Source of the DNA: a bacterium
Lineage (GTDB): Bacteria; SAR324; NAC60-12
Assembly (NCBI GenBank): GCA_965233585.1
Contig: CBDDTI010000746.1
Location: forward strand, 544,001-608,000
DNA length: 64,000 bases
Reading direction: 5' to 3'
Shown here: positions 727-50,217 of the stretch, one piece after another
Layout: every line of letters begins with the position of its first letter
How positions within the stretch are numbered: the stretch's first letter is position 1
Translations under genes and position numbers: made by a program
Notes under the pieces: model-generated
Database searches by the model: none
What the model was told of the DNA's origin: nothing
Seen by the model: only the letters and a program-made list of their open reading frames with translations

Positions 727-1089
727 ATGGTTGCTCAAGAGTATTTTCCTATCCTAACTATTGTGGTGATTGCTGTTGGATTTGGTGCAGTGTTGACAAT
801 AGCCAACATTCTGCTTGGACCCAAAAATCGTACAGAGATCAAAGCTAAACCCTTTGAGTGTGGCTTAATCAGCGACACTGTTGCCAAGGATCAGAGGTAT
901 AACGTCAAATTTTACATGACGGCATTGGCTTTTTTAATCTTTGATGTAGAAGTGGTCTTTTTGTATCCTTTGGCGACTTCATTCAGAGGAGTTGGTTTTT
1001 ATGGCGTTATAGTGGGGGGGATTTTTTTGTTTATGCTTGTATTAGGTTTGGTTTATGAATGGAAAAAAGGCGGTTTAGAATGGGAGTAA
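727..1089 (+). CDS. nuoA: NADH-quinone oxidoreductase subunit A
   Basis: KPFECG and FLIFDVEVVFLYP motifs, C-terminal YEWKKGGLEWE, 3 TM segments. Confidence 0.97.
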   Translation: MVAQEYFPILTIVVIAVGFGAVLTIANILLGPKNRTEIKAKPFECGLISDTVAKDQRYNVKFYMTALAFLIFDVEVVFLYPLATSFRGVGFYGVIVGGIFLFMLVLGLVYEWKKGGLEWE

Positions 1090-1090
1090 C

Positions 1091-1648
1091 ATGATGGGAA
1101 GTTCAAGGTTTGAGGAAGGTTTTTTGACAACGAAGATAGATTCTGCGGTCAACTGGGCTAGGAAATTTTCTTTGTTTACTTATCCTTTTGTCACGGCATG
1201 CTGTGGCATGGAGTATATGTCTGTGGCATGTGCGCATTATGACATTGCTCGTTTTGGTGCAGAAGTGCCAAGATTTTCACCAAGGCAAGCAGACTTGTTG
1301 CTTGTCGTGGGAACAGTCAATCATAAAATGGCGCCCATTCTCAAAACAGTGTATGAGCAGATGTCAGACCCTAAGTGGGTGGTAGCGTTTGGGGCATGTG
1401 CTTCTTCTGGTGGTTTCTATCAAAATTATGCAGTAGTACAAGGGATTGATCGGGTCGTGCCTGTTGACATTTACATTGCAGGCTGTCCGCCACGTCCTGA
1501 AGCAGTCCTTGATGCCATCATTGAACTTCAAAACCGAATCCAAGACAACGATTCGCAAGAGAAGAGACGAGACCGCCTTGCCTCTATCCTGCCAAATGCC
1601 CCGCAAAAACCATCACAAAAAATCACCCTTAGTCGTTCTCCTGCTTAA
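1091..1648 (+). CDS. nuoB: NADH-quinone oxidoreductase subunit B
   Basis: TACCGME, SPRQADL, GACASSGG, GCPPRPEA (N2 cluster ligands). Confidence 0.97.
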   Translation: MMGSSRFEEGFLTTKIDSAVNWARKFSLFTYPFVTACCGMEYMSVACAHYDIARFGAEVPRFSPRQADLLLVVGTVNHKMAPILKTVYEQMSDPKWVVAFGACASSGGFYQNYAVVQGIDRVVPVDIYIAGCPPRPEAVLDAIIELQNRIQDNDSQEKRRDRLASILPNAPQKPSQKITLSRSPA

Positions 1649-2170
1649 ATGAATCCCAACGCAGTCGCTCAACTCCAAGAGTCTTATTCTACTGACATTC
1701 TTTCATGTGAGACTTATCGCGGGGAGGTGACTGTGAGAGTCAACCCTGATGTCATCTTGCCGTTTTGCCAATTCTTGCGTGATGATGAGACGTTGCAAAT
1801 GCAAATGCTCATTGACTTGACTGCCGTGGATTATCTGGATTCCAAAAGAACCCCACGTTTTGACATGGTCTATCACTTCCATTCGCTAAAGTTTCAGCAT
1901 CGCTTGCGTGTGAAGGCAGGTGTTTCAAAGGAGGACTGTCAGATTGATTCTCTTTCTTCACTTTGGGCGTGTGCTGACTGGTACGAAAGAGAGTGCTACG
2001 ACATGTATGGAATTATCTTCAAAAATCACCCCAATTTGGAAAGACTTTTGATGTATGATGGCTTTGAAGGATACCCCTTGCGCAAAGACTATCCCGTTGG
2101 TAAACAACAACCTCTGGTAGAACTCAAACCCGTTGAAGAACGTTACGCCTATCAACAAGACCGATATTAA
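1649..2170 (+). CDS. nuoC: NADH-quinone oxidoreductase subunit C
   Basis: DLTAVDY; WYERECYDMYGI..HPNLERLL..PLRKDYP. Confidence 0.97.
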   Translation: MNPNAVAQLQESYSTDILSCETYRGEVTVRVNPDVILPFCQFLRDDETLQMQMLIDLTAVDYLDSKRTPRFDMVYHFHSLKFQHRLRVKAGVSKEDCQIDSLSSLWACADWYERECYDMYGIIFKNHPNLERLLMYDGFEGYPLRKDYPVGKQQPLVELKPVEERYAYQQDRY

Positions 2171-2173
2171 AAG

Positions 2174-3355
2174 ATGATGCAGGAAAACAATGATGCCTTG
2201 ATGACTGTGGAAATGGGACCTTCTCACCCTGCAATGCACGGGATTGTGCGATTCACTGTGCAACTTGACGGAGAACGTATTGTGGACATGATTCCTGAAA
2301 TCGGCTACTTGCATCGTGGGTTTGAAAAGGAATCGGAAAACTCAACGTGGGTGCAAATCATGCCCTACACAGACCGATTGAATTATGTCTCTCCTTTGCT
2401 TTGCAACATCGGCTACTCTATGGGAGTTGAAAAACTTTTTGGAGTGGAGATTCCCAGACGTGCGGAGTTCTGCCGTGTGATCATGGGTGAAATTTCACGC
2501 ATCACAGACCATTTGACCTGCCTTGCCGCCTCAGCAATGGAGGTGGGAGGGTTTACTTTTTTCTTGTGGGCAATCAAAGCACGAGAGTATCTTTGGGAAT
2601 TGATTGAGAATGTCACAGGGGCAAGGCTGACAACCAACTGGCCACGTTTTGGTGGCAATGCCACTGACTTTCCTGATGACTTCTTGCCTGAACTAGATGT
2701 CAGACTCAAACAAGTTTCAGAAGTGGTGGAAGAGTGTGACCAACTCATCACACGCAACAAAATTTTTATTGACCGCATGAGAGACATTGCACCCGTCACC
2801 CCTGAAGAAGCAATGACTTGGGGTTTCACGGGACCCTTGTTGCGTGCATGTGGTGTGGCTCAAGATTTAAGGCGGACAGAACATTACTCTGTCTATGATG
2901 AACTAGATTTTGAGATTGCAGTTGGCACAACAGGAGATTGCTACGATCGCTTTCTTGTCAGAATGGAAGAAATCAGGCAGAGTATTTCAATCATCAAACA
3001 AGCAGCAGACAAGTTGCCTTATGGTCCTGTTTGCACGTATGACCGCAAATTGAGCTTCCCTGAAAAAAAACATGTTTACGGAAATATAGAGGGAATGATT
3101 GACCACTTTAAACTGGTCATGGAAGGGCATCAACCCCCTGCTGGTGAAGTTTATGCTGCCATTGAAGGTGGTAACGGAGAGCTTGGATTTTATTTGGTAT
3201 CAGATGGCACAGGGCGTCCGCTCAAGTGTCGTGTGAGACCTCCTTGCTTTAATTTTGTAGCCGCAATGCCTGCCATGTGCATTGGCAATTATGTAGCAGA
3301 CATCATTGCGATTTTTGGATCAATTAACATGATCGGTGGAGAATTAGAACGTTAA
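2174..3355 (+). CDS. nuoD: NADH-quinone oxidoreductase subunit D
   Basis: GPSHPAMHG, IGYLHRGFEK, DRLNY, GDCYDR, C-terminal GELER. Confidence 0.97.
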   Translation: MMQENNDALMTVEMGPSHPAMHGIVRFTVQLDGERIVDMIPEIGYLHRGFEKESENSTWVQIMPYTDRLNYVSPLLCNIGYSMGVEKLFGVEIPRRAEFCRVIMGEISRITDHLTCLAASAMEVGGFTFFLWAIKAREYLWELIENVTGARLTTNWPRFGGNATDFPDDFLPELDVRLKQVSEVVEECDQLITRNKIFIDRMRDIAPVTPEEAMTWGFTGPLLRACGVAQDLRRTEHYSVYDELDFEIAVGTTGDCYDRFLVRMEEIRQSISIIKQAADKLPYGPVCTYDRKLSFPEKKHVYGNIEGMIDHFKLVMEGHQPPAGEVYAAIEGGNGELGFYLVSDGTGRPLKCRVRPPCFNFVAAMPAMCIGNYVADIIAIFGSINMIGGELER

Positions 3356-3357
3356 CT

Positions 3358-4440
3358 ATGTTGGAAATTTTAGCAAATCCAGTCGTTGTCACATTGTTGA
3401 AAATTGCTGTCATTCTCTTTGCTTTTGCATTACCTCTTGCAACCTTGCTGACTCTGTTTGAAAGAAAATGGAGTGCCATGATTCAAGACCGAGTCGGCCC
3501 AAACCGTGCCAATCTTCCTTTTTTCAAAAACTTCAGGGGGCGTGGCACTGCACACATTGCCGCTGATGCTCTCAAATCTTTGTTCAAAGAAGACACAGTC
3601 CCAGATGGTGCAGACCGCTTTCTGTTTACTATTGCGCCTTGGTTTGGGTTCATTCCTGCTTTTGCCATCTTTGCTGTCATTCCCATTGCTGCACCTATTG
3701 GAGACTTCAAGTTCCAAATTGTAGATATTGAACCGGGGCTTTTGTATATTTTTGCCGTGTCGTCTTTGGGGGCATACGGGGCAGTTTTGGCAGGCATGAG
3801 TTCCAATAATAAGTACTCTGTGCTTGGTGGAACTCGTGCCTCTGCTCAGGTGATTTCTTATGAAGTGTTTATCGGGATTGCCTTACTTGGCTTGCTAATG
3901 ATTTACGGAGACACAAGAATTTCTGCATTAGTAGAAGGTCAAGGAGAATACTGGCTCAACGGATTGATTCCAAAGTGGGGTATTTTCACGCAGCCTGTCG
4001 GGGCAGTTTTGTTTTTTGTTGCCATGATGGCAGAGACCAAACGTCCGCCATTTGATGCACCAGAGGGGGAATCAGAGCTTGTTGCAGGTTATTTTGTAGA
4101 ATATTCAGGCATGCGGTTTGCCTCGTTTCTGCTGGCAGAATATGTGGCGATTGTCGGAGTTGGTGCATTGACAGTGACTTTGTTTTTTGGGGGCTATCAC
4201 GTCCCTTGGATAGATTTGTGGAAGGAAGCCCCTGTGTGGCTTGTCAGAGTCTTACAAGCCTTGAAGTTTGGTGCGTTCACCTTCTTTTTTTGCTGGCTTC
4301 AGCTTCAACTTCGCTGGACACTCCCTAAATTCCGCTTTGACCAAATTATGACATTAGGCTGGAAGAAACTTTTGCCAATTTCACTAGGTAATGTCCTTGT
4401 CACTGCGGCTGTTCTAGTGTTCATTGATTATTACAACTAA
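3358..4440 (+). CDS. nuoH: NADH-quinone oxidoreductase subunit H
   Basis: ERKWSAMIQDRVGPNR, AQVISYE, PFDAPEGESELVAGYFVEYSG. Confidence 0.97.
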   Translation: MLEILANPVVVTLLKIAVILFAFALPLATLLTLFERKWSAMIQDRVGPNRANLPFFKNFRGRGTAHIAADALKSLFKEDTVPDGADRFLFTIAPWFGFIPAFAIFAVIPIAAPIGDFKFQIVDIEPGLLYIFAVSSLGAYGAVLAGMSSNNKYSVLGGTRASAQVISYEVFIGIALLGLLMIYGDTRISALVEGQGEYWLNGLIPKWGIFTQPVGAVLFFVAMMAETKRPPFDAPEGESELVAGYFVEYSGMRFASFLLAEYVAIVGVGALTVTLFFGGYHVPWIDLWKEAPVWLVRVLQALKFGAFTFFFCWLQLQLRWTLPKFRFDQIMTLGWKKLLPISLGNVLVTAAVLVFIDYYN

Positions 4441-5588: not shown

Positions 5589-6347
5589 ATGGACTTTGGC
5601 ACGTTAATCGGATTCATTTTAGCCTGTGCTTTGATTATCTTCGGCATGGGTTCTTACATCTCAGCCTTTGTAGATATTCCCTCTTTATTGATTGTTGCAG
5701 GTGGGACGATTGGGACTGTGCTGATGTCTTTTCCTCTTTCTACACTCAAAGGGCTTGGTGGGATTCTTAAAAAAGCTCTTTTTGCCTCTCCTCCTCAATT
5801 CCAAGGTGTTTTTGCAACCATCATGGAATTTGCAGCACGTGCCAGAAGAGAGGGTTTGCTCAGCTTAGAAGGTGTGGAAAATGACACAGATGATGCGTTC
5901 TTCATTAAAGGAATTAACATGGCTGTTGACGGATTGGAGGTAGCAATCATTGAAGAGACACTAAAGAATCAACTTGCCTCAACAGAAGACCGACACAAAA
6001 CAGGCTACACCGTGTTTATGACCATTGCAGCACTTGCCCCCGCAATGGGTATGATTGGAACACTGGTAGGGCTTGTGATTATGCTCCAAAATTTATCAGA
6101 CCCTGATGCCATCGGTCCCTCAATGGCGATTGCCTTGATTACAACATTTTATGGAGCTTTCATTGCCAATGTCATTGCCTTGCCTATTGCCAACAAACTT
6201 CAACGACGAAGCGAGGAAGAACTCCTTGTCATGCGTTTAGTCATGGAAGGAATCCTTTCTATTGCTGTTGGAGATAACCCACGTATCGTAGAAAACAAAC
6301 TCAACAGCTTTCTTGCTCCAAAAGATCATACTTCTTCAGCAGAATAG
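5589..6347 (+). CDS. motA: Flagellar stator A subunit (MotA/PomA family), no adjacent MotB
   Basis: ARREGLLSLE, APAMGMIGTLVGL, ALITTFYG, GDNPR. Confidence 0.9.
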   Translation: MDFGTLIGFILACALIIFGMGSYISAFVDIPSLLIVAGGTIGTVLMSFPLSTLKGLGGILKKALFASPPQFQGVFATIMEFAARARREGLLSLEGVENDTDDAFFIKGINMAVDGLEVAIIEETLKNQLASTEDRHKTGYTVFMTIAALAPAMGMIGTLVGLVIMLQNLSDPDAIGPSMAIALITTFYGAFIANVIALPIANKLQRRSEEELLVMRLVMEGILSIAVGDNPRIVENKLNSFLAPKDHTSSAE

Positions 6348-6592: not shown

Positions 6593-7327
6593 TTACTTTC
6601 TGTTCAATATATCAGCAATGCGACCTCCCACTGTGGAGTTTTGTTTGCCAACCAAAGGAGATAATTGTTCAAGACGTTGTCTCAGCAAATTTCCTAGAAT
6701 TTGACGTTTGACCTTGACTTCGGGGTAAACGAGCTTGGTTGCAGAAACGATATTAGAGTCATCAATGTCCACAGGACGCAAGACCCCTTGAATGGTGGTG
6801 ATATAACGGACGCCATTTTGCTGACGATGATCCACTTTTTGTCCTCTGATGACCATATTGCCATTGGGTAGCACACGCACCACTTCTACCGACATGACAG
6901 AGGTAGAAGCTAAAATGTCGTTTTGGTCTTTTTCTAATTGATCCCGAAGCGTCAGGGCTTCCAGTGCAATATTTGCCCGACCTGCATCGGTTGTGGTGTC
7001 TTGTTCTGTTTGAGAAGTTTCAGGTAAAGTGATGATTTGACCAATCTCATTGATAGTTAAAAGGTCATTTTTGTAACGCGCTCTGTGGTCTCTCCAAAGG
7101 TTTCCAAATGAAGACTCATTACTCCATAGTGAGCCTTCGTATTGATTTCCCACAGAGGGCAATCTGGGACGCCTCAGTTGATTGGGCAATGTTTTTCTTG
7201 CAATTTCTGGAGTCTCAGGTTCTTGTGGCGTTTTCTGATTTCTCAAGACAGTGCAACTCATCGTGAAAATGCCTAGTAAGCCAAATAAAATCGCTTGTTT
7301 TATTTTGAAACACATCTTTGAACGCAT
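6593..7327 (-). CDS. flgH: Flagellar L-ring lipoprotein FlgH-like, divergent
   Basis: Lipobox FTMSC, GSLW, D.RA....DLLTI, V.RVLPNGNMVIRGQK, G.LRPVDIDDSN; lies downstream of flgA. Confidence 0.8.
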   Translation of the reverse strand: MRSKMCFKIKQAILFGLLGIFTMSCTVLRNQKTPQEPETPEIARKTLPNQLRRPRLPSVGNQYEGSLWSNESSFGNLWRDHRARYKNDLLTINEIGQIITLPETSQTEQDTTTDAGRANIALEALTLRDQLEKDQNDILASTSVMSVEVVRVLPNGNMVIRGQKVDHRQQNGVRYITTIQGVLRPVDIDDSNIVSATKLVYPEVKVKRQILGNLLRQRLEQLSPLVGKQNSTVGGRIADILNRK

Positions 7328-7331
7328 GATT

Positions 7332-8324
7332 TTAATTCACTTGAACGGTGTTAGAGCTTAAAATTTTTGCCTGCACAATTTTTTTGCTGGAGAGATTCCT
7401 CACAGGGATTGTCTCACCACGTCTGCCGTGCTTCATCGCCACGCCAACTGTGCTGACACGAAACAACTCAGTTTCATACAAAATACTCATTTTGTCACCA
7501 GTTTTGACGATGGGTTGAACTTCTACAGTCCGAGTTTGTAGGGTCTCACCTGCGGCGATTGGACGTTTACTTTGCTTGCCAAGCAAATCAGATTTATCTG
7601 TGACATAATGAGAAGGGATTCTGTCCACATTCAGACGCACTTTCTCAATGTCGTTTTCTTTGATCACTTGGTTATAGCCTATGTCATTTTTGGCAACATA
7701 CACCTCTTTATAAATTTTGAGATAGATGCGGCTCATCACCGTTTTTGCTAACTTGTTGTTGATAAAAAACTCTACCTTATAAGTGCGGTACCCACCCTCT
7801 TTTTTATACTTGCCATGTAGTTTAACTTCATATTTTAGCTCTCCTTTAGGCAAGAAAATATCACGATTTTTAGAGAGCAAACGTGGCTTGATGTTTTCTG
7901 ATGGATATTGGTCTTGAATGTGAAACAACACCGCTTGGTCAATGTCTGAACCTGAGATTTGCAAGGCAGAGCGTCTGACTACTGTCCTTTGCTTCAAAGG
8001 AAACTCAATTTGAGAGACATCAACAAAACGTCTCATTTTAGAAAGAATGAGAGAGTTTGTGACAGTCAGAGAGCCACCGGGTAAAGGAGACCTGCCAATT
8101 TGAATGCCTCCAATTTTTGCAACAAAAGATGCCTCTCCTTCCAGTTTTGCAATGTCTGCAAGGGTATAATTGAGGTTATTCACTGTGGTTTGTTCTTGCA
8201 AAATCACTGATGCCGCACCTTTGATTTTTTTTGCCAAAGACTGTCCTGTGAGTCCAAATACAGTGAATCCTAACAATGCAATGCTAAACCTCAAAATTTG
8301 AGTGAGATGTGTTTGTGTTTTCAT
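7332..8324 (-). CDS. flgA: Flagellar P-ring assembly chaperone FlgA
   Basis: Signal peptide, SAF-like region, C-terminal G..GETIPVRNLSSKKIVQA. Confidence 0.9.
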   Translation of the reverse strand: MKTQTHLTQILRFSIALLGFTVFGLTGQSLAKKIKGAASVILQEQTTVNNLNYTLADIAKLEGEASFVAKIGGIQIGRSPLPGGSLTVTNSLILSKMRRFVDVSQIEFPLKQRTVVRRSALQISGSDIDQAVLFHIQDQYPSENIKPRLLSKNRDIFLPKGELKYEVKLHGKYKKEGGYRTYKVEFFINNKLAKTVMSRIYLKIYKEVYVAKNDIGYNQVIKENDIEKVRLNVDRIPSHYVTDKSDLLGKQSKRPIAAGETLQTRTVEVQPIVKTGDKMSILYETELFRVSTVGVAMKHGRRGETIPVRNLSSKKIVQAKILSSNTVQVN

Positions 8325-8336
8325 GGTTTTTAAAAA

Positions 8337-9125
8337 TTATTTTGCCAGTCCGTTGGCAGTTTGAAGCATTTGGTCGGCTGTTTGAATGGCTTTGGAATTG
8401 ACCTCATACGCACGTTGTGCCGTAATCATGTCCACCATTTCCTCCACAATAGACACGTTAGAGCCTTCTAAAAATCCCTGATTCAATGTTCCAATTCCAT
8501 TCATACCGGGCGTTTCTACAATGGGATTGCCTGATGCAGGGGAGGACAAGTAAAGATTTTTCCCCATAGGCGTCAGTCCTGCGGTGTTGGTAAATCTTGC
8601 AATTTGAATCGTGCCAATGGCTTGGGGCTGTGTTTCGTCACGTAAAAAGACAGACACTGTGCCGTCAAAACCAATGTTAATTTTTCGTGTTTCTTGAGGA
8701 ATATTGATTTCAGGGTCAAGCAACATACCATCAGGCGTCACCACACGTCCGAGTCCATCAATATTAAAATTGCCTGCACGGGTGTAGGCAATCGCTCCGT
8801 TTGGTTGCAAAATTTGAAAGAAACCAGGTCCGTCAATGCTGACATCTAATTGATTCCCTGTGCTTTCCATGTCTCCTTGTGTGTGAATTTTTTCAGTAGA
8901 GATATGCTTCACACCATGCCCGACATGAATCCCGACGGGGGATTGTGTCACAGAAGAAGATGCGGCACCTGCAATTCTTTCGTTGTGGTACAGCAGGTCT
9001 TGAAAGTTGTTGCGACTCTTTTTAAAACCATTGGTGTTCACATTAGCCAGATTGTTGGCAACGGTGTCTATTTGTTTTTGCTGTGCCGTCATTCCAGTTG
9101 CGGCAGTAAATAATGAACGCATCAT
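8337..9125 (-). CDS. flgG: Flagellar basal-body rod protein FlgG
   Basis: ANNLANVNTNGFKKSR, YTRAGNF, LEGSNV..VEEMVDMITAQRAYE. Confidence 0.97.
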   Translation of the reverse strand: MMRSLFTAATGMTAQQKQIDTVANNLANVNTNGFKKSRNNFQDLLYHNERIAGAASSSVTQSPVGIHVGHGVKHISTEKIHTQGDMESTGNQLDVSIDGPGFFQILQPNGAIAYTRAGNFNIDGLGRVVTPDGMLLDPEINIPQETRKINIGFDGTVSVFLRDETQPQAIGTIQIARFTNTAGLTPMGKNLYLSSPASGNPIVETPGMNGIGTLNQGFLEGSNVSIVEEMVDMITAQRAYEVNSKAIQTADQMLQTANGLAK

Positions 9126-9143
9126 AAGTCAGCCTCCTATTTT

Positions 9144-9917
9144 TTATGAGATACGCGAAAGTGAGATTGCTTTTTCATCAAGGCGGTCCATACTTTTCAT
9201 AGCAGACTGCACTTGCTCGTAAGCACGATTGCCTTGAATCATCGTCACCATCTCCTTCACAGAATTGACATTTGAAGACTCAAGCATGCCTTGCTGAACC
9301 TTCACAGAGCCATCTACAATCGGCACATTATCACTCCCCAGTGGAGCATACATGGACGAGCCAAGTTTTTGTAAATTATGAGGATTCCGAAACTTTGCTA
9401 ACTTCAGCTGGTCTATCAGTTGTCCATCAACGCTGATGCCTCCTTCATCATTAATGGCAATGTCATCACCTTCTAATTTGATAGCTCCATTTTGCCCGAT
9501 GACAGGGAAGCCATCTTTGGTTGTTAAAATCTTTTCTGAATTGATGGCAAATTGTCCTGAACGTGTGTAACGTTCCCCTTGCGGTGTAGAGACTGCAAAA
9601 AATCCTTGCGACTCAATGGCAAGGTCAAGCGGATTCCCTGTGGACTCCATTCTGCCCGGCTCAAAATTGTTTGAAACGGCATCTACTTTGACAGCTGATT
9701 TGTCCATGCCAACAAACAAGTCAAGATACTCATGGGACAAAAACTGCTCCTCATCAGATTCAGGAACAACCCGAGTTGCCTGTGACAAAACCTCTTTAAA
9801 AACAGGTTGATCTTCTTTAAAGCCTGCTGTGTTGACGTTTGCCAAATTATTAGAGGTCACCTCAAGTTTTTTTTCGTAAGCGTTCGTTGCTGAAATTAAG
9901 CTATAAATTCCACTCAT
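9144..9917 (-). CDS. flgF: Flagellar basal-body rod protein FlgF (start re-called at ATG 9917)
   Basis: SNNLANVNTAGFK, TGNPLDLAI, YTRSGQF, LESSNVN; lies upstream of flgG. Confidence 0.9.
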   Translation of the reverse strand: MSGIYSLISATNAYEKKLEVTSNNLANVNTAGFKEDQPVFKEVLSQATRVVPESDEEQFLSHEYLDLFVGMDKSAVKVDAVSNNFEPGRMESTGNPLDLAIESQGFFAVSTPQGERYTRSGQFAINSEKILTTKDGFPVIGQNGAIKLEGDDIAINDEGGISVDGQLIDQLKLAKFRNPHNLQKLGSSMYAPLGSDNVPIVDGSVKVQQGMLESSNVNSVKEMVTMIQGNRAYEQVQSAMKSMDRLDEKAISLSRIS

Positions 9918-9957
9918 TTTTTTAAGTTTGCCAAAAGGTCTGAATGTTAGGAAGGAA

Positions 9958-9973
9958 AGCAAGCGTTATGCCA
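9958..9973 (-). promoter_or_regulatory. Sigma54 (-24/-12) promoter of flgFGAH
   Basis: Minus strand TGGCATAACGCTTGCT matches TGGCAY-N5-TTGCW, 40 nt upstream of the flgF ATG. Confidence 0.85.
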
Positions 9974-16969: not shown

Positions 16970-17686
16970 TTAAAAAATTTTTGGAGCTTTCACGATGATC
17001 AAGTTTTGACGTTCAATCCATGCCTCTTGAGTTTGTGGCATTTCAACCCGCACCCAGTTCTCTTGCACTTCTTTAACTTTGGTTTGTATGAGGTCTTCAG
17101 TCTTGAGAATGATTTCAGTTTTGGAGTGTGGTGCAAGATGGACAGGAGTTTGTACCTTGACAACCGACACAGGTGCATCAAACCAGAGTCTCCAAACTGA
17201 CAGAGCAACTCCCAAAATCCCAAGACAGACCCCCAAAGCAGGCACGACCTTTGGCAACTTGTGACGTGACGCCAAAAGTCCCCACATCAGCAACCATGCA
17301 AAACCTGAAGCAAGCACTGTCTCTAACCTTGTCAGTTTTTTAAGTCCGTTTTCTAGCCAATGCTGATTTGCATAACGAGTGTGTGCTGGAATCAGGTTTA
17401 AATTATGCTGGACATTGGCATTGCGGGGAATATATTCCTGTGCTTGCAAATAGTAGCCCATTGCCGATGCAACATCTCCAGAAAGAAATGCGGCTACTCC
17501 TGCATTGTAATACAATGCACCTTCCCTAATGTCCATTGCTAATAATTGCTTGTAGCCAGCCAGTGCCTTTTGCCAATCTTTTGAGTCCATCTGTTGATTA
17601 GATTGCGACCAAAGCTGTTGTACATCATCAGCCAAGAGTATTTTGGAAAAAGCAATCAAGATGACAAAAATGAGACTTTTTTTCAT
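16970..17686 (-). CDS. BatE-like TPR + TM + SH3-like protein
   Basis: Signal peptide, TPR (LYYNAGVA...AMGYY..A....PRN..VQHNL), 2 TM segments, SH3b-like C-terminus (WVRV...AWI). Confidence 0.75.
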   Translation of the reverse strand: MKKSLIFVILIAFSKILLADDVQQLWSQSNQQMDSKDWQKALAGYKQLLAMDIREGALYYNAGVAAFLSGDVASAMGYYLQAQEYIPRNANVQHNLNLIPAHTRYANQHWLENGLKKLTRLETVLASGFAWLLMWGLLASRHKLPKVVPALGVCLGILGVALSVWRLWFDAPVSVVKVQTPVHLAPHSKTEIILKTEDLIQTKVKEVQENWVRVEMPQTQEAWIERQNLIIVKAPKIF

Positions 17687-18133
17687 AGGTTATCTACTTC
17701 CGAATCGTGTCAAAGCCTCATAGATTATCACAACAAACAGAAAAAAACGATGTTCAGAGACCTCAGAGTCTTGAATGATTTGAGTGACACCTGCCTCGCT
17801 CTAAATTTGAAGATGAAAAAAGAATAAGATGTCAATTTGTCATAAAATATTGATTTTATAATTTTTTGTGTTATACTATGAAACGATTTTTGTTTGATGT
17901 AAAAAAGTTCAATGGCTTAAGTCCGCTTGGCAATAGCATTTGAATCCAAAAACTGAGGTGTCTTCAAATAGCGAAAAATTGGGAAACAAGTCGTTTTCAC
18001 TCCTTTTCACTGACTGATGTCATTTTTTCTTAGGTTATCTGGATAGGAGTCTATTGCAATAAATCTATTTTGGTGTATCATCTTTGTTTCCTAACAATGC
18101 CGTTTTTTGTTTTTTGATTCACTACTTTGGGGT

Positions 18134-18184
18134 ATGAATCAAAGAATGCGATGAATGACTTTTGAGGGAGGCTGTTTTTGGTGT
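18134..18184 (+). pseudogene. Degenerate copy of the first 17 codons of msrAB
   Basis: 43/51 nt identical to 18222-18272; translates MNQRMR*MTFEGGCFWC. Confidence 0.85.
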
Positions 18185-18221
18185 CATCTCCTTTTAACAA
18201 CTTATTTTTTAACCAACCATT

Positions 18222-19181
18222 ATGAATCAGAAAATACAATTAGCGACTTTTGCGGGAGGCTGTTTTTGGTGTATGGAGTCTCCTTTCGTCAAGCAAGAAG
18301 GAGTTCTGCAAGTGCAGGTTGGATACACCGGCGGAACAGAAGTCAATCCTACGTATGAACAAGTTGCTTCAGGCAAGACAAGCCACCGTGAAGCTGTCCA
18401 GATTTCTTATGACGTTTTGCAAATTGACTATCAGACACTATTGCACCTCTTTTGGACACAAATTGACCCCACTGATGCAGGTGGTTCGTTTGCAGACAGA
18501 GGACAACACTACACTTCTGCCATTTTTTATCACTCTGAAGAACAAAAAAACTTGGCTGAAGAGTCCAAACGAACGCTTGACCAAACCCAAGTTTACAACC
18601 AGCCTGTCGTCACAGAAATTCTACCTTACTCCGACTTTTATTTGGCAGAAGACTATCATCAAAAATACTATCAGAAAAATCCTTTGGCATATCAAAGCTA
18701 TCGTCAAGGTTCGGGACGTGACCAGTTTTTACAAAAAATCTGGGGACAAAAACAAGAATCTCAAAAGTCAGTTCAGTTGACCCCTTTGCAATATCATGTT
18801 GTCAAACAAGATGGCACAGAACCAGCTTTCCAAAATGAGTATTGGAATCACCATGAAGAAGGAATTTACGTAGACATCGTCTCAGGGGAGGCTCTTTTTT
18901 GTTCTTGCGACAAGTTTGACTCAGGCACTGGCTGGCCCAGCTTTACACAACCCATCACCAAAGAAGCATTAGTCCAGCAAGACGATGATAAGCTAGGGTA
19001 TCAACGCACAGAAGTCAGAAGCCGACAAGCTGACTCTCACTTAGGGCATGTCTTTAATGATGGACCCAAAAAACAAGGAGGTTTAAGGTATTGTATTAAC
19101 TCCGCATCACTCAAATTTGTTGCTAAAGAAGACTTGGAAGCCCAAGGATACGAACAATACCTGACTTTGTTTGGGGAGTGA
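18222..19181 (+). CDS. msrAB: Bifunctional methionine sulfoxide reductase MsrA-MsrB
   Basis: GGCFWC and AEDYHQKY (MsrA); [20 protein letters not shown] (MsrB). Confidence 0.96.
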
Positions 19182-19275
19182 ATGATTGCCAAAAACGTGT
19201 GCCAGCTCACCAATTTTGAAAAACATCATCTTTGCAAAACCAATTTGTTAAACACAACTTTTGAATATCAGGAAT

Positions 19276-20280
19276 ATGAAAAGAATCTCTTATTTAAGCA
19301 CTAGATCAGAATTTTTAAGCTCCAAAGAAATTAGAGCGATTGAAGAGATTTCCAGAAAAAATAATCAAGCTAGGGGGATTACAGGTTTTTTTGTCATCAT
19401 TGACAATCATTTTTTTCAAACAATAGAAGGACCTGCAGAGGCTATTGACCTGCTGTTTGACAAAATCCGACAAGACCCCAGACATGATCAAATCATTTGC
19501 CTCACTTCAGAAGAAAATGTCAGCACCAGAAAGTTTCCAGATTGGTCTATGAATTGGTTTGCTACCAATCATGCCTTTGGGGTCAAGAACGTCTTTGAGA
19601 GTATTTTGAAATCTATCATTGGTTTGCAAAATAATCTGGCTCAATATACCCAAATCAAAATTCTCAATTACTTGTCTCAAGGAGTTTTACCTTCTTCTGT
19701 TGAACCCTTCCGAGTAGAAAAAACAGTCTTGATGTCCGATATTGCAGGGTTTACGATGCTTTGTGAAAATTTGGAGTCCCAAAAGTTGGTGAACCTTGTC
19801 AATCACTTTCTGGAAATCACTTGTGATCAAGTGAACAAACATGGAGGAGAAATTAACAAGATCATTGGTGACTGCGTCTTGGCAGTTTTTGATGCTTCTA
19901 ACACAGATGACGCCATCCAAGCGGCAGTCAGTATTGTGCAAAATGTGACCCAGTTGAGGCAGGAATCCCAAGACAGTGTGTGCAAATTCCTTCAATGTGG
20001 AATCGGCATAGATACAGGAATGGTGACAGAAGGCAATATTGGCACCGCTGTCAAAAAAGACTACACCATTTTAGGGACAGCTGTGAATGTTGCATCAAGG
20101 CTGGAATCACTCACAAGGTTTTTCCAAAAAAGCATTGTCATTTCTGAAAGAACCTCTAGCCTAATGTCAGACCATTGGGAGTTGGAAGCATTAGGAGACT
20201 TCAAGATCAAAGGAATAGATGCCAAACAATATCTTTACACCCTCAAAAATTTACAGAAATTCAATGTCAACAGCATTTAG
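19276..20280 (+). CDS. Photoactivated adenylyl cyclase (BLUF + class III cyclase), bPAC/OaPAC-like, 334 aa
   Basis: BLUF residues Y6, NN(29-30), Q48, W90, M92; cyclase motifs SDIAGFT, KIIGD, DYTILG.AVNVASRLE, IKG. Confidence 0.92.
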   Translation: MKRISYLSTRSEFLSSKEIRAIEEISRKNNQARGITGFFVIIDNHFFQTIEGPAEAIDLLFDKIRQDPRHDQIICLTSEENVSTRKFPDWSMNWFATNHAFGVKNVFESILKSIIGLQNNLAQYTQIKILNYLSQGVLPSSVEPFRVEKTVLMSDIAGFTMLCENLESQKLVNLVNHFLEITCDQVNKHGGEINKIIGDCVLAVFDASNTDDAIQAAVSIVQNVTQLRQESQDSVCKFLQCGIGIDTGMVTEGNIGTAVKKDYTILGTAVNVASRLESLTRFFQKSIVISERTSSLMSDHWELEALGDFKIKGIDAKQYLYTLKNLQKFNVNSI

Positions 20281-20504
20281 GTCGTTAAGTCTGTTCACAC
20301 GCTTTCCTTTGCAACAAGAAATAACGCCTTTTTTCGCTAAAATCTATTGAACCCTGTGAAGATTTTAGCAGGGTTGCACCTTGCTTGACCTCATATTAAA
20401 AGTCAAAATTTCCTCACTTCTTTCTTTTCATACTTGCAATTTCATTCCAAAAATTTTAAATTCTATCTTTTTGGTTTTGTTAATAGATTTTTAGATAGGA
20501 AAAC

Positions 20505-21272
20505 ATGAGTAACCCCGAAAGACTGACAGACAGCACTGACATCATCACAATCTCTAAGATGAACAAGTGGTATGATGCTTTTCATGTGCTGAAAGACATT
20601 AATTTGAATGTTAAGAAAGGAGAACGTATCGTGATTTGTGGTCCGTCAGGGTCAGGAAAATCAACCATGATTCGTTGTCTCAATCGGTTGGAAGAACACC
20701 AAGAAGGCACTGTCATCATTGATGGTGTGGAATTGAGTGACAATTTAAAGAACATAGAAAAGATCCGCAGCGAGGTGGGTATGGTGTTCCAAAGTTTTAA
20801 TCTTTTCCCTCATCTTTCTATTTTAGAAAACCTAACCCTTGCACCAATCTGGGTCAGGAAGCAATCTCCTAAAGAAGCAGAAGAAATTGCATTGCAGTAT
20901 TTGGAACGTGTCAAGATTCCAGAGCAGGCACATAAATATCCCGGTCAGCTTTCTGGGGGTCAACAACAGCGCGTGGCGATTGCAAGGAGTCTTTGCATGA
21001 ACCCCAAGATCATGTTGTTTGATGAACCCACTTCTGCACTTGACCCTGAGATGATCTCAGAAGTTCTGGACGTAATGGTAGAGTTGGCAGAAGGTGGTAT
21101 GACCATGTTGTGTGTGACCCATGAAATGGGATTTGCCAAACAAGTCGCAGATTGCGTCATTTTTATGGACCGTGGAGAAATTGTAGAACAAGGCACACCT
21201 GAACAGTTTTTCAACAACCCTCAAGAAGAACGTACCAAAAAGTTTTTAAGTCAGATTTTACACCACGGATAA
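20505..21272 (+). CDS. Polar amino acid ABC transporter ATP-binding protein (AapP/GlnQ-like)
   Basis: [39 protein letters not shown]. Confidence 0.95.
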
Positions 21273-29438: not shown

Positions 29439-30335
29439 ATGGAAAAACAGACAGATAGGCTTTTTGCTCAAAATTTTCATGATTTAGACCAAGCCACTTG
29501 GCTAACCACTGAGAATGGGGAAGAGCTTGCCGAATACAAAGGGAGTTCGTTCAATGGTGTGCCAGAAGGCACTGGCGTCATCACGTTCCCTGATGACACC
29601 ATTTATACAGGAGAATTTCACAAGGGCAATTACCACGGCTACGGACGCTTGCTTGATGCAGGTGGAAGTCATTATGAAGGATTTTGGGAAGCAGGCAAGA
29701 AACATGGTCGAGGCATCCTCTCTTATCCTGATGGTGAAATCTTTACAGGTGTTTTTCAAGACGATGAACCCCAGAAAGGTCATGGCACACTCATGTTATC
29801 TGATGGCACTAAATATATTGGGGAAATCAATCACGGAAATTTTTCGGGTGCAGGAATTTATACTCTGCCTTATGGGGGACAATATATTGGAGAATTTAGA
29901 GACGGACTCTATCATGGACAAGGCTATTTTAAAGACGCAGACGGTACTAGATATATTGGAGAATTTAAAAAGGGAAAAAGGGACGGGCAAGGAATTTTTA
30001 CCTCATCTGGTGGACACACGTACATTGGGGGATTTAAATCTGGAAAATACCACGGACAAGGGACTTATCAATTACCTGATGAAAAATATGTCGGAGAATT
30101 TAAAAATGGAATGCCTAACAATCAAGGTAGGTTGTCTTTTAGTGACGGGGGAGAATACCTAGGTCAATTCAAAAATGGAAGTTACCATGGTGAAGGAACG
30201 CTCTGCTTCCCAGATGGTGGAAAATATGTTGGGCGATTCAAAAACAACGAATACTGGCAAGGCATTCTTTATGATGAACATGGCAACATTGAATCTTCCT
30301 ACGATGGAGGTCAAGAACAAATCAAAGCTGACTAA
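29439..30335 (+). CDS. MORN-repeat protein
   Basis: About ten 23-aa Y.GEF..G..HGQG repeats. Confidence 0.93.
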   Translation: MEKQTDRLFAQNFHDLDQATWLTTENGEELAEYKGSSFNGVPEGTGVITFPDDTIYTGEFHKGNYHGYGRLLDAGGSHYEGFWEAGKKHGRGILSYPDGEIFTGVFQDDEPQKGHGTLMLSDGTKYIGEINHGNFSGAGIYTLPYGGQYIGEFRDGLYHGQGYFKDADGTRYIGEFKKGKRDGQGIFTSSGGHTYIGGFKSGKYHGQGTYQLPDEKYVGEFKNGMPNNQGRLSFSDGGEYLGQFKNGSYHGEGTLCFPDGGKYVGRFKNNEYWQGILYDEHGNIESSYDGGQEQIKAD

Positions 30336-32058: not shown

Positions 32059-34002
32059 ATGTTATCCATTGCTAATCTGACAATGCAGTATGGTGATGCT
32101 CCACTGTTTGAGAATGTCAGTTTAAGCTTTTATCAGCCCAATCGCTATGGCATTGTTGGGGCAAATGGCTCTGGCAAATCCACTTTACTTCGTCTCTTAC
32201 TCCATGAAGTCCCCCCCACAGAAGGCGAAGTTTCCATTCCGCAAGATGTCTATGTTGCCGCACTGAAGCAAGACCATTTTCAATATGAAGACCAATCACC
32301 AATGGAGGTTGTCTTGCAAGGGAATCCAGAGCTTTGGAAGGCACTCAAGGAAAAAGAGAGCCTGCTGGAGAGTGAAGATGCCCAGACAAACGACACTATC
32401 GGTTATCGCCTTGGCGAGCTTGAAGAAACCATCGCACACCATGACGGATACAACGCAGAACATCAAGCAGCAGAAATTTTGCAAGGATTGGGCTTGGAAC
32501 TCAAACAGCATCATCAGCCTATGAGTCTGCTTTCTGGTGGTTTCAAACTCCGTGCATTGCTGGCACAAACACTTTTTAGAAAACCTGAAATCCTATTGTT
32601 AGACGAACCAACCAACCATCTTGACATTGTTTCTATCTATTGGCTTGAAGAGTTTTTAAAAAAGGATTTTCAAGGTGTGCTTTTAGTGGTGTCGCATGAC
32701 CGCTACTTTCTTAATTCTGTGACAACTCATATTGTTGATGTGGATTATGGCACCATGCAAATTTACACGGGTGACTACGACCAATTTGTGCAAGCGAAGG
32801 CATTGGATTCAGAACAAAGGGAGCGAGAGGCTTCTAATCAAGAGAAAAAAATTGCACACATGCAAGCATTTGTAGACCGTTTCAAAGCCAAAGCGACAAA
32901 GGCACGTCAGGCTCAGTCAAGAGTCAAACAGATTGAAAAAATGGAAGCTCCAGAAATTCGCTACTCTACAAGGGTCAGCCCTTCTTTCAATTTTCAGGCG
33001 GTGCGTCCTTCAGGCAAGGACGTTCTACAAGTCAAAGAGCTTTCTAAAAACTTTGGTGAAAAGCAGGTTTTGTGCAATGTGAGCTTTGAAGTCAGTCGGG
33101 GAGACAAAGTAGCCATCATTGGTCCAAACGGCATAGGCAAGTCCACCCTTCTTAAAATTTGCATGGAGCATTTAACAGCTTCTAAAGGCAAGGTTGAGTG
33201 GGGATATGAGGCACAAAAATCTTATTTTGCCCAAGACTTAGCTGAAGACTTTCGGCACAAAACATCAGTTTATGAGTGGCTTTATCAATTTGCTCCACAA
33301 GAGTCAGTGGGCAAGATACGTTCCTATTTAGGGCGTGTTTTATTTTCAGGCGATGATGTTCACAAGTTCACAAATTCCTTGAGTGGAGGAGAGTCAGCAA
33401 GATTAATGCTTGCCAAAATCATGCTCACACAGCCCAATGTCATTTTACTTGACGAACCAACCAATCATCTGGATATGGAAAGCCTAGAGGCACTGGAAAA
33501 CGCATTACAGCACTACGAACACACCCTCCTTTTTGTCAGCCATGACCGACGTTTTGTTGGACAAGTTGCCACCAAAATTCTGGCTCTTTCTCATCAATCT
33601 GTCAGATATTTTGACGGAACGTATGATGAATATCTGGAAAAATATGGAGAAGACTACCTTGACAAAGACCAACTTGCCAAAATCGTCAGACAAAAGAATT
33701 TACCAAGCAAACAGGCTTTAAGCTATCAGGAAAGAAAAGACTTACAACGTCAGCAAAATCAAATTCAAAAGCAGATTGAAAAGTGCGAGGAACAATCTGC
33801 CAAAGAAGAAAGCACCCTTGCCAAAATTCAACAAGAGTTTGCAAATCCTGCATTGTACGAAAACGAAAACCATCAAAAAATCCAGCATTTGACAAAGCAA
33901 AAACAACAAGTTCAGCAAAAATTAGATGCCTTCGTCGCACAGTGGGAAGAGTTGTCCGAGCAGCTAGAAAAAGTGGAAGCTAAGCTGACTGCTTGCCTCT
34001 AA
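32059..34002 (+). CDS. ABC-F family ATPase (YbiT/YheS-like)
   Basis: Two ABC domains (GANGSGKST, GPNGIGKST, LDEPTNHLD twice), inter-domain linker, C-terminal coiled coil, no TM segments. Confidence 0.95.
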   Translation: MLSIANLTMQYGDAPLFENVSLSFYQPNRYGIVGANGSGKSTLLRLLLHEVPPTEGEVSIPQDVYVAALKQDHFQYEDQSPMEVVLQGNPELWKALKEKESLLESEDAQTNDTIGYRLGELEETIAHHDGYNAEHQAAEILQGLGLELKQHHQPMSLLSGGFKLRALLAQTLFRKPEILLLDEPTNHLDIVSIYWLEEFLKKDFQGVLLVVSHDRYFLNSVTTHIVDVDYGTMQIYTGDYDQFVQAKALDSEQREREASNQEKKIAHMQAFVDRFKAKATKARQAQSRVKQIEKMEAPEIRYSTRVSPSFNFQAVRPSGKDVLQVKELSKNFGEKQVLCNVSFEVSRGDKVAIIGPNGIGKSTLLKICMEHLTASKGKVEWGYEAQKSYFAQDLAEDFRHKTSVYEWLYQFAPQESVGKIRSYLGRVLFSGDDVHKFTNSLSGGESARLMLAKIMLTQPNVILLDEPTNHLDMESLEALENALQHYEHTLLFVSHDRRFVGQVATKILALSHQSVRYFDGTYDEYLEKYGEDYLDKDQLAKIVRQKNLPSKQALSYQERKDLQRQQNQIQKQIEKCEEQSAKEESTLAKIQQEFANPALYENENHQKIQHLTKQKQQVQQKLDAFVAQWEELSEQLEKVEAKLTACL

Positions 34003-34091
34003 ATCAAAATTCCCATGAAACACCACCAATTCTAACAATGCGTTTCATCTGTTTTTTGTTCATCAATCTTGCCTGTTCAAAAGGCTATTTT

Positions 34092-35849
34092 ATGAAGTAC
34101 AGACTGGCATTTGCAAAGTTTGTCTTCACTCTGACTCTCTCCTTCCTTGCTTTATTCAGCTTTGATGCCTCAGCGTCTGATTTAAATGCAGTCTTAGACA
34201 AAACAACAGGGACTTTGGAGGATTTTTTTCAAATGGAAGTCACACTTGAAAACAAGGAACATGAAGACTCCCCAAGAGTCATTTCAAACGATGATTTTGA
34301 GGTGCAATATCAAGGGCAAAGTGTCAGCAGCCAGTGGATCAATGGCGTCTCTAGTCGTCAAACTACATTCAGATTCCTTCTTGAACCCAAACGAGTTGGC
34401 ACTTTGCAAAGCCCTGTGATTGAACTCAAAGTCGGTGGCACTTGGCAGAGGTCTCCATCTTATCAAATCACAGTAGAAAAGCCCCAAATCGTCACTGATG
34501 ACAGCCAAGAACTCCCTGCCGCCTTTGTCAAAGCAGAGTTTCTGCCCCAAGACGTTTATCTGAATCAGCAAGCCACTTACAAAGTTTTGTTTTTTGTACA
34601 ATCTGACTTGCGTGTAGATGAGCTTCAACTGCAAAGCCCCCAGATGCAAGATTTGACCTCTTATGAGCTAGAAGAAACCCCAACATACACGCAGGTTTTG
34701 CAAGGCAGACGCTACCTTGTTTATACCCATCAGGTCGCTGTCTTTCCTCATTCAACAGGAGAAAAACAACTCTTAGCAGGCAAGATTTCAGGCAAACAAC
34801 TTTTTGGCAACAACAATCTTTTTGGAAGTTTTTCATTATTTGATGCAAAACCCTTCCGCTTGTTAATCCCTGAAACCACTTTGCAAGTCAACCCACTACC
34901 CAATCAGCAAAGACCAAAGAGTTTTTACGGCTTGGTTGGGAATTATAGTCTTGATGCCTCCTTGTCTGCAGAACAGATTCAAGTTGGAGAAGTCTCTACC
35001 TTGACCATTCGTGTTCAAGGCAACGGACTGGCAGAAAGTGTCCAAGCACCAGAGATTCAAACCACTCCTGAACTTAAAATCTACCGAGACCAGCCAACCT
35101 ATCAAAATGAAACCAATCAGGAACAGCTCACTGGAACAGCAGAGTTTAAAATAGTACTGAGCCCAAGCCGAGCAGGAGATTACACCATTGCACCAGTCAG
35201 TTTGAACGTCTTTCACCCCGAAACTGGACAATATCAAACATTGACCACACCCGCACTGACTTTGCGTGCTGGTGGCGTCAATCCTGACCAAGTCTTGCAA
35301 GACCCTACAACAGATCAAGGACAGGAAGCCATTGAAAAGCCAGATTTGCCAAGACCCATCTTTCGTGGAGAACTGGCACAAGCACGTTCCAGTAATACAT
35401 GGCTCATCGTGAGTCTGTTCATACTTCCTGTCATTGGATTCGTTTTATTAGAAAGCATCAAAGCCTATTTGAGGTATTTGCAAAGCAATGCTCAAGAAAT
35501 CCGTCAACAAAAGGCTTTCCAAACCTTCCAAAAATCTTTGAAAAAACAACAAAACTTGCCCACAGATCAAGCACAAGCACAATGGACAGCCTCTTGCATC
35601 AGGCAATACATCAGCGACAAATTGATGTGTCAAGCAGAAGCCTTTAATTCCGCTGAAGTTCAAGACTTATTAGCCAAGCAAAATCTGGACACACACCTTG
35701 TCGGGCAGGTTTATCAAAATCTTCTGCATTATGAAATCGTTTGTTATGGGGGTGGAAAACTGGGGTCTCATCTCAATTTACTAGAGACGATGGCACAGTT
35801 AGACCAAGCACTCAAAGACATGTTAAAAGAAGACAAGTTAAGAAATTGA
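34092..35849 (+). CDS. BatD-family protein
   Basis: Signal peptide, SSQWING, V.PLP...P.SF.GLVG, single C-terminal TM segment. Confidence 0.85.
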   Translation: MKYRLAFAKFVFTLTLSFLALFSFDASASDLNAVLDKTTGTLEDFFQMEVTLENKEHEDSPRVISNDDFEVQYQGQSVSSQWINGVSSRQTTFRFLLEPKRVGTLQSPVIELKVGGTWQRSPSYQITVEKPQIVTDDSQELPAAFVKAEFLPQDVYLNQQATYKVLFFVQSDLRVDELQLQSPQMQDLTSYELEETPTYTQVLQGRRYLVYTHQVAVFPHSTGEKQLLAGKISGKQLFGNNNLFGSFSLFDAKPFRLLIPETTLQVNPLPNQQRPKSFYGLVGNYSLDASLSAEQIQVGEVSTLTIRVQGNGLAESVQAPEIQTTPELKIYRDQPTYQNETNQEQLTGTAEFKIVLSPSRAGDYTIAPVSLNVFHPETGQYQTLTTPALTLRAGGVNPDQVLQDPTTDQGQEAIEKPDLPRPIFRGELAQARSSNTWLIVSLFILPVIGFVLLESIKAYLRYLQSNAQEIRQQKAFQTFQKSLKKQQNLPTDQAQAQWTASCIRQYISDKLMCQAEAFNSAEVQDLLAKQNLDTHLVGQVYQNLLHYEIVCYGGGKLGSHLNLLETMAQLDQALKDMLKEDKLRN

Positions 35850-41419: not shown

Positions 41420-41441
41420 CTGATTAACTCCATGAGAGGTG

Positions 41442-41474
41442 AAACAAAACAACAGCACCCCCTGCGGGTGCTGT
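41442..41474 (-). terminator. Terminator-like hairpin in the 5' leader of the large lipoprotein gene
   Basis: Minus strand ACAGCACCC-GCAGG-GGGTGCTGT followed by TGTTTTGTTT, upstream of the RBS. Confidence 0.55.
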
Positions 41475-50215: not shown

Positions 50216-50217
50216 AC

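Follow-up and report, generated by a model that had tools for sequence, protein, structure and literature searches.

The stretch examined here covers 64,000 nucleotides (nt) of a SAR324 bacterium of the lineage NAC60-12 (GenBank assembly GCA_965233585.1, contig CBDDTI010000746.1, positions 544,001 to 608,000 of the forward strand), and the whole of it is referred to below as the window. It contains a gene for a protein of 334 amino acids (aa), P0001, in which a BLUF photosensor domain is followed by a linker and a class III cyclase domain (Table 1). This gene probably encodes a soluble, single-module photoactivated adenylyl cyclase (PAC) of the type known from bPAC of Beggiatoa sp. and OaPAC of Oscillatoria acuminata, an architecture that had been proposed in a first-pass annotation and that is supported by domain models, full-length alignment, residue conservation, and a confident fold match.

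The Pfam family BLUF (PF04940) matched residues 1–93 over the whole length of the model (E 3.3e-26; 91.7 bits, curated cut-off 25), and Guanylate_cyc (PF00211) matched residues 150–324 (E 5.2e-23; 82 bits, curated cut-off 21.9). No Pfam match to a PAS/LOV domain was found in the protein at E <= 0.01, and NCBIfam offered no specific model, its sole match being a weak cyclase domain far below cut-off. When all PDB sequences were searched, OaPAC chains were the best match (E 1.9e-70, residues 1–325), bPAC chains came next (E 4.7e-64, residues 1–329), and isolated cyclase and BLUF domains ranked far behind. The first-pass annotation had suggested an alignment with bPAC and OaPAC and a tree as checks; the alignment runs end to end with both proteins, and the tree is described below.

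An AlphaFold2 model of the monomer, for which the input was a 64-sequence family alignment, has a mean predicted local distance difference test score (pLDDT) of 90.7 and a predicted template modelling score (pTM) of 0.80. The model contains a BLUF fold of the order beta-alpha-beta-beta-alpha-beta-beta, and along the chain the BLUF sheet is followed by a long helix (residues 101–122), a short helix (127–134), and the cyclase fold. Foldseek searches against the PDB placed OaPAC entries on top (E 2.5e-41 to 3.8e-38, identity 38–39%) and also recovered full-length bPAC (E 3.0e-39 to 1.1e-35, identity 34–36%), with query-normalised whole-chain template modelling (TM) scores of 0.68–0.80 against the OaPAC and bPAC entries. 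The cyclase-only bPAC chain 5mbg superposed at a root-mean-square deviation (rmsd) of 1.4 Å with a TM-score (target) of 0.89, indicating that the catalytic domain is, as modelled, complete.

Table 1. Coordinates of the predicted BLUF-adenylyl cyclase gene and of its parts in the window.
Feature	Position	Strand	Details
Whole coding sequence of the predicted BLUF-adenylyl cyclase (P0001)	19276..20280	+	Uninterrupted open reading frame, 334 codons, TAG stop
AGGA, possible ribosome-binding site	19270..19273	+	Read from the sequence, 2 nt before ATG; short spacing
BLUF flavin-binding photosensor domain, residues 1–93	19276..19554	+	Pfam PF04940; Y6, S26, N29, N30, Q48, D67, R69, H70, W90, M92
Linker, residues 96–146	19561..19713	+	alpha3 helix ~101–122, YTQ 124–126, handle helix 127–134, P139
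Class III cyclase catalytic domain, residues 147–325	19714..20250	+	PF00211; D155, K195, D199, N254, D262, T264, N271, R275, E277
Short C-terminal tail, residues 326–334	20251..20277	+	Nine residues past the column of residue 325

Published functional residues were mapped onto P0001 through the OaPAC alignment, and the alpha3 contact sites of bPAC were mapped through numbering offsets, not through a direct bPAC alignment. At every functionally assigned column of the 64-sequence alignment, P0001 has the majority residue. The residues of the photocycle (Y6 in 59 of 64 sequences, Q48 in 62, M92 in 59, and W90 in 63) and those contacting the flavin (N30 in 61 of 64, D67 and R69 in 62 each, H70 in 61) are kept, as are the metal-binding D155 (62/64) and D199 (64/64), the base-recognition residues K195 (60/64), D262 (57/64), and T264 (63/64), and the transition-state residues N271 (62/64) and R275 (50/64). 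A further active-site residue, E277, is kept in 56 of the 64. According to PMC11533990, Asp156, Asp200, Asn273, and Glu279 of OaPAC lie at the metal/ATP site, and their counterparts in the sequence alignment are D155, D199, N271, and E277. The substitutions K197A and R278A lower the activity of bPAC (Table 1 of PMC8522238), and the equivalent residues, K195 and R275, are present. All motifs listed in the first-pass annotation (Y6, Q48, W90, M92, LAQYTQ, SDI, KIIGD, D-Y-T, and N..SR) were found where it had placed them, with LAQYTQ at residues 121–126, SDI at 154–156, KIIGD at 195–199, DYT at 262–264, and NVASR at 271–275.

The residues expected to carry the signal from the photosensor to the enzyme are also kept. 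A hydrogen-bond network of Tyr126, Asn257, and Pro141 in bPAC is described as critical for cyclic AMP (cAMP) production in both bPAC and OaPAC (PMC13001422), and its counterparts Y124 (60/64), N254 (58/64), and P139 (64/64) are present in P0001. The same source names L111 and L115 of OaPAC as coiled-coil core residues, to which I110 and I114 correspond. In alpha3, positions 103, 107, 110, 114, 117, 121, and 124 follow an alternating 4/3 spacing; the query has a hydrophobic residue at each of the seven, and at least 91% of the family has one at each of the six other than 117, a heptad pattern as expected for a putative dimeric coiled coil. With regard to the substrate, adenylyl cyclases are reported to carry Lys together with Asp or Thr where guanylyl cyclases have Glu and Cys (PMC5967339). 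By this rule, K195 and T264 would indicate the ATP-type specificity claimed in the first-pass annotation.

Two readings of the gene start were compared. A TTG codon at 19261, five codons upstream of the ATG at 19276, is an alternative start that would allow a 339-aa product. Most homologues in the alignment start at the Met of the downstream ATG and keep the N-terminus M-K-R-x-x-Y-x-S (R3 in 60 of 64 sequences, Y6 in 59, S8 in 60). Because most homologues begin at the same Met and an AGGA lies just upstream, we prefer the ATG as the probable start, with the AGGA as a weakly supported candidate for the ribosome-binding site. The gene has a GC content of 38.9% compared with 42.2 ± 2.1% in 51 window genes; its GC content at third codon positions (GC3) is within 0.5 standard deviations of these genes, and its codon-usage distance is the 13th lowest of the 51. 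The gene is native to its host and host-like in composition. Horizontal transfer was considered and rejected on the grounds of this host-like composition and codon usage. A truncated pseudogene behind the short tail was likewise rejected: reading in frame past the stop codon gave 19 unrelated residues and then another stop, and the cyclase domain is complete against the bPAC chain 5mbg.

Scans for local signals returned little. No Rfam family reached its gathering score across the whole window, and a sub-threshold hammerhead match inside the upstream msrAB gene (region 17600–20600; E 0.38, 19.3 bits against 34) was taken as chance. The 224-nt spacer downstream of the PAC gene folds no better than shuffled sequences (z = -0.94). 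Consensus scans counted 13 promoter-like sites compared with 7.7 ± 2.9 in shuffles and three terminator-like sites compared with 3.3 ± 2.0, none of either kind being convincingly placed for the PAC gene.

Relatives of P0001 were sought in several collections. A search of 1.84 billion cluster representatives returned 98 proteins at E <= 1e-30; dozens of the top 150 matches are 320–370 aa long and align over nearly the entire query, and longer proteins of 688–1335 aa match in multiple stretches. In a word-indexed search the closest relative was P0002, a metagenomic protein of 345 aa from an ENA-derived contig of 19.5 kb, with 61% identity over the full length, followed by about 15 more full-length relatives at 33–43% identity, of which the four with organism names are all cyanobacterial. 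Related loci were collected with a 12-sequence alignment from species-representative genomes, and the best 80 loci of at least 575 stretches were retained, a set that excludes the genome of the window itself and the sister P0002. Among the loci listed, six (L001–L006) have full-length homologues and come from Phormidium, Pseudanabaena, another cyanobacterium, and Riflebacteria, Bacteroidales, and Salinivirgaceae bins; a partial homologue was found in a Nitrospirales bin (L007).

A quick maximum-likelihood tree was built from 70 rows (64 aligned sequences and six locus translations, none dropped); bPAC and OaPAC themselves are absent from it. The query groups with P0002 (Shimodaira–Hasegawa-like approximate likelihood ratio test, SH-aLRT, 99), then with P0101 (97); these three belong to a clade of 11 rows (99), and the cyanobacterial OaPAC-like proteins form a group apart from it. 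Because of this position beside P0002 within the 11-row clade, P0001 is, as judged from its sequence, nested within the family and not an outlier. The query and P0002 share the clade-specific motifs LAVF, GIGIDTG, GTAVN, and LPS together with a one-residue loop deletion. Other genes of the window are closer to those of their nearest relatives, with 91% identity for NuoD and 88% for PGK, but the PAC protein reaches only 61%; the contigs of the PGK relative (44 kb) and of P0002 (19.5 kb) are distinct, as their lengths differ. Behind its 91% match, NuoD has five matches in SAR324 cluster bins at 66–74% identity, and further matches bear the names Deltaproteobacteria (three), Calditrichaeota (one), and a mussel assembly (one), which makes SAR324 a tentative lead for the host. 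Behind the 88% match of PGK comes a flat field at about 58%, in which the organisms named are Alphaproteobacteria. A literature search found no paper combining 'SAR324' with 'BLUF'. P0001 is a genuine, uncharacterised member of the well-known and populous BLUF-cyclase family.

If P0001 works as bPAC and OaPAC do, two chains would pair in parallel as a homodimer, with the alpha3 coiled coil holding them together, as homology indicates; the amphipathic heptad pattern of alpha3 is the one feature here that favours a dimer. Each BLUF domain would hold a flavin non-covalently, and blue light would switch the hydrogen bonds among Tyr6, Gln48, and the flavin. From Met92 and Trp90, both on strand beta5, the signal would reach alpha3 and then the network of Tyr124, Asn254, and Pro139, which may link this helix and the handle with the beta4-beta5 tongue of the cyclase. 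The outcome would be an opening of the two active sites at the interface of the cyclase dimer. In these sites, Asp155 and Asp199 are predicted to bind two Mg2+, Lys195 and Thr264 to select adenine, and Asn271 and Arg275 to stabilise the transition state, so that ATP would be converted to cAMP and pyrophosphate. Flavin binding, dimerisation, light dependence, kinetics, and the cellular role of cAMP are features that we infer by homology.

Several features weigh against P0001 being a regular light-driven cyclase of this type. The alpha3 helix, which would relay the signal, is the least conserved part of the protein: the divergent linker noted in the first-pass annotation is evident at residues 101–122, where mean identity to 62 family members is 13% compared with 25% for other family pairs. 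The two domains are typical of the family (BLUF 40% vs 39%, cyclase 37% vs 37%). The lowest model confidence falls on residues 91–110 (pLDDT 62–69), and the query and its sister P0002 are one residue short in the beta5-alpha3 loop. Residue 117 is Leu in the query and S, T, or A in 54 of 64 sequences; residue 120 is Asn in the query and I or V in 43 of 64. By numbering offsets and not by direct alignment, Q118, N119, and A122 stand at the sites of bPAC His120, Arg121, and Glu124, which contact the BLUF sheet (PMC13001422); N119 thus occupies the Arg121 site, at which the substitution R121S is reported there to raise dark activity. In the cyclase domain, T268 replaces Asp270 of OaPAC, which crystal structures show close to the metal site together with Asn273 (PMC11533990), and 47 of the 64 sequences have Asp or Glu at this column. 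Homology is also no guarantee of activity, as LiPAC and TpPAC illustrate: in Table 1 of PMC8522238, LiPAC shows no detectable activity in oocytes, and TpPAC has a light turnover of 5 per min and a light/dark ratio of about 150, being 18-fold weaker than bPAC (93 per min, ratio about 1600). Finally, no cNMP-binding protein that could serve as a cAMP receptor was seen among the 67 open reading frames (ORFs) scanned in the window.

The C-terminus of P0001 is also short, with nine residues past column 325 compared with a family median of about 25, and only six of the 64 sequences have fewer. According to PMC6937261, the last residues of OaPAC inhibit the enzyme, and light-driven cAMP increased 30–60 fold once more than nine had been removed; the OaPAC tail fused to bPAC is recorded in that source as having no effect. 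The total length of 334 aa is short and not unique, as three of the 64 aligned members are shorter (322, 328, and 330 aa) and the Salinivirgaceae homologue in L005 has 330 aa. These peculiarities in alpha3, the tail, and T268 are modest, and what they and the length mean for function cannot be predicted from sequence.

These features leave room for other readings. The protein might bind flavin and photocycle and still be a poor or effectively constitutive cyclase whose dark activity is high or whose light/dark ratio is low; control would then be loosened by the divergent coupling through alpha3 and the handle and by the lack of a C-terminal tail. The divergent and poorly modelled alpha3, the Asn at the bPAC Arg121 site together with the dark activity of R121S (PMC13001422), the nine-residue tail together with the 30–60 fold effect of shortening OaPAC (PMC6937261), and the wide spread of dark activity and of light/dark ratios among natural PACs (from 28 to 1650 in Table 1 of PMC8522238) would all fit such an enzyme. 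However, the Tyr124/Asn254/Pro139 relay and the coiled-coil core are intact. The columns of the bPAC His120, Arg121, and Glu124 sites vary in the family (R in 14, L in 8, S in 7, and N in 5 of 64 at the Arg121 column), and Asn is therefore not unusual there; the lack of inhibition of bPAC by the OaPAC tail likewise suggests that tail effects are not general (PMC6937261). We consider a leaky enzyme of this kind unlikely.

Loss of catalysis, with the BLUF photosensor controlling a cyclase-like domain that serves as a scaffold or protein-binding output, would be in line with the inactivity of LiPAC in the one heterologous assay listed in PMC8522238 and with T268 at a position close to the metal site that is acidic in most of the family. 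It appears very improbable, however, given the complete catalytic set (two metal-binding Asp, Lys/Thr, Asn/Arg, and Glu277) and the superposition of the cyclase domain on that of bPAC at an rmsd of 1.4 Å. Three substitutions at specificity positions sufficed to make bPAC a guanylyl cyclase (PMC4569695), which indicates that specificity is set by few residues and that cyclic GMP or another cyclic nucleotide might replace cAMP as the product. Yet the adenine-type Lys195, Asp262, and Thr264 are kept where guanylyl cyclases carry Glu and Cys (PMC5967339), and such a product seems extremely improbable. The BlgC substitutions were looked for in PMC11629205 and not found there. A light-activated adenylyl cyclase of the bPAC/OaPAC type is the reading we prefer.

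A more specific proposal is that P0001 and its 61%-identical sister form a compact PAC subclade with rewired sensor-enzyme coupling and with kinetics or dynamic range unlike those of bPAC and OaPAC. It is raised because of the shorter beta5-alpha3 loop, the Leu117/Asn120 swap, the altered BLUF-contact residues, Thr268, and the minimal tail, and we regard it as tentative and rather doubtful. If it were true, blue light might steer motility or a photo-oxidative stress response via cAMP in a flagellated, apparently non-phototrophic host.

A gene for an MsrA-MsrB fusion (18222–19181, + strand) ends 95 nt upstream of the PAC gene on the same strand. The presence of this methionine sulfoxide reductase next to the PAC gene makes a link between oxidative repair and light sensing conceivable; against such a link, no Msr gene adjoins the six other PAC loci (L001–L006). 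Downstream, a gene for a GlnQ/EhuA-like amino-acid ABC ATPase (20505–21272, + strand) begins after about 225 nt and is followed by pgk; this ATPase gene is solitary, with no permease or binding-protein gene adjacent. At L001–L006, the scan took in the nearest two or three ORFs to either side of the PAC homologue (35 of 69 ORFs), and no neighbour was common to all six loci, nor was any shared with the window locus. A ribose-5-phosphate isomerase gene adjoins the PAC homologue in L001 and L003 only, which are two close cyanobacterial loci, and no cNMP-binding domain was found in 29 neighbours of the L001–L006 homologues. Because neighbours are not shared and no cNMP-binding domain occurs among them, the gene context gives no functional clue for the PAC. 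In L004, from a Bacteroidales bin, the PAC homologue is preceded at a distance of about 2.6 kb by a gene for a MerR-type regulator with B12-binding domains (2497–3381, + strand); this make-up is, we assume, that of CarH-like light-responsive regulators, and two photosensors may therefore lie near each other there.

The host is a flagellated, apparently non-phototrophic bacterium. Motility genes in the window include flgH, flgA, flgG, and flgF (6593–9962), fliR (42572–43351), and motA-motB (52305–53783), accompanied by nuoA-B-C-D-H and a gene for a sigma-54 activator. Among the 67 ORFs scanned in the window there is no phototrophy or photosynthesis gene and no rhodopsin, LOV, or photolyase gene, in agreement with the first-pass description of a motile organism with no phototrophy genes in the window, for which the flg, fliR, and MotA genes were seen. 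Genes of the MotA/ExbB family occur twice, one at 5589–6347 (+ strand) being solitary and one at 52305–53783 (- strand) being paired with a MotB-type OmpA-domain gene; they may represent two stator systems or include one Tol/Exb-like component. A role of the PAC in motility is only an analogy with an unrelated light-dependent cyclase: LprA of Leptospira, through which light-made cAMP controls swimming, was considered as an analogue and retained as a functional analogy only (PMC9043183). The available text of that source presents LprA only as a protein with an adenylate/guanylate cyclase domain and leaves its photosensor unidentified.

Other features of the window stand apart from the PAC gene. 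At 727–4440 (+ strand), nuoH comes directly after nuoA, nuoB, nuoC, and nuoD, and the genes nuoE, nuoF, and nuoG are missing in between, which suggests that the complex I cluster at this locus is of the type without the NADH-oxidising module. A gene at 37721–41458 (- strand), whose product of 1244 aa carries fibronectin type III and Kelch repeats, has a GC content of 46% and a GC3 of 0.50, clearly higher than the averages of 42% and 0.39 for the window; a foreign origin or a codon bias of its own may account for this. A BatD-domain protein (33993–35849, + strand) and a TPR and SH3 protein (16970–17686, - strand), 16 kb apart, are in our view reminiscent of components of the Bat aerotolerance operon. 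A protein of the PDDEXK_2 (PD-(D/E)XK 'transposase') family at 51190–52146 (+ strand) follows a 974-nt stretch (50216–51189) without a large ORF, and the region 50216–52146 may be a mobile or recombination-related element. A 298-aa MORN-repeat protein is encoded at 29439–30335 (+ strand). The GMP synthase homologue at 44207–46042 (- strand) has 610 aa and matches the GMP_synt_C domain in two stretches; presumably, an insertion may make it exceed the usual length. The longest ORF for ClpX (61360–62706, + strand) has a TTG start, overlaps the end of clpP (60861–61448) by 89 nt, and has its zinc finger from residue 43; the true start is probably further downstream than 61360.

PACs are widely used optogenetic actuators whose light-to-enzyme relay is intensively studied, and determinants of dark activity and dynamic range can be revealed by natural variants in which alpha3 differs and the C-terminus is minimal. 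Whether P0001 would make a useful optogenetic tool, as the first-pass annotation had envisaged, is not predictable from sequence alone, as natural PACs range from 93 per min to no activity (PMC8522238, Table 1). That annotation overstated the importance of the protein, which is one of many uncharacterised homologues. The features of the subclade might interest PAC engineers; they represent no new kind of system. In ecological terms, a predicted blue-light-to-cAMP sensor is added to a flagellated, apparently non-phototrophic, and poorly sampled lineage. This is not unexpected; homologues already occur in cyanobacteria and in Riflebacteria, Bacteroidales, Salinivirgaceae, and Nitrospirales bins.

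Among the characterised PACs, OaPAC (PDB 4yus, 5x4t, and the 8qf and 9f1 series) is closest in sequence. P0001 has the same single-module order of BLUF domain, alpha3 coiled coil, handle, and class III cyclase, the same photocycle, relay, and catalytic residues, and 39% identity end to end. It differs from OaPAC in having 334 instead of 366 aa (the latter length following from the mutant names and the 18 residues counted after E348 in PMC6937261), in lacking the inhibitory C-terminal extension and the stretch with the conserved Glu348, in being shorter by two residues after beta5 and longer by one in the early part of alpha3, in carrying Thr268 instead of Asp270, and in belonging to a clade other than that of the cyanobacterial OaPAC-like proteins. 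Its sister P0002 is distinguished by a tail of 20 residues compared with nine in the query and by a Pro (YTQP) where the query has Ile127.

The bPAC protein, also called BlaC (PDB 5m27, 5m2a, and the 5mb series), shares with P0001 its architecture and a motile, non-phototrophic host, and its full-length chains reach query-normalised TM-scores of 0.73–0.80 at 34–36% identity. Crystallised OaPAC constructs have 350–394 aa and the crystallised bPAC chain has 353 aa, against which the query is shorter, as the first-pass annotation had stated. Native bPAC has 350 aa, and the query is about 16 residues shorter than this, mostly at the C-terminus. By numbering offsets, it also differs from bPAC in having Gln118, Asn119, and Ala122 at the sites of His120, Arg121, and Glu124. 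P0001 is predicted to belong, with EuPAC and mPAC, to the light-activated class III adenylyl cyclases. The alpha and beta subunits of Euglena EuPAC have about 1000 aa with two BLUF-cyclase repeats each, and P0001 differs in that its 334 aa comprise a single BLUF and a single cyclase domain, with no tandem repeat. The mPAC protein uses a LOV sensor, as stated in the title of a reference cited in PMC8522238, and P0001, which has no PAS/LOV domain, differs from it in carrying a BLUF photosensor, as bPAC and OaPAC do.

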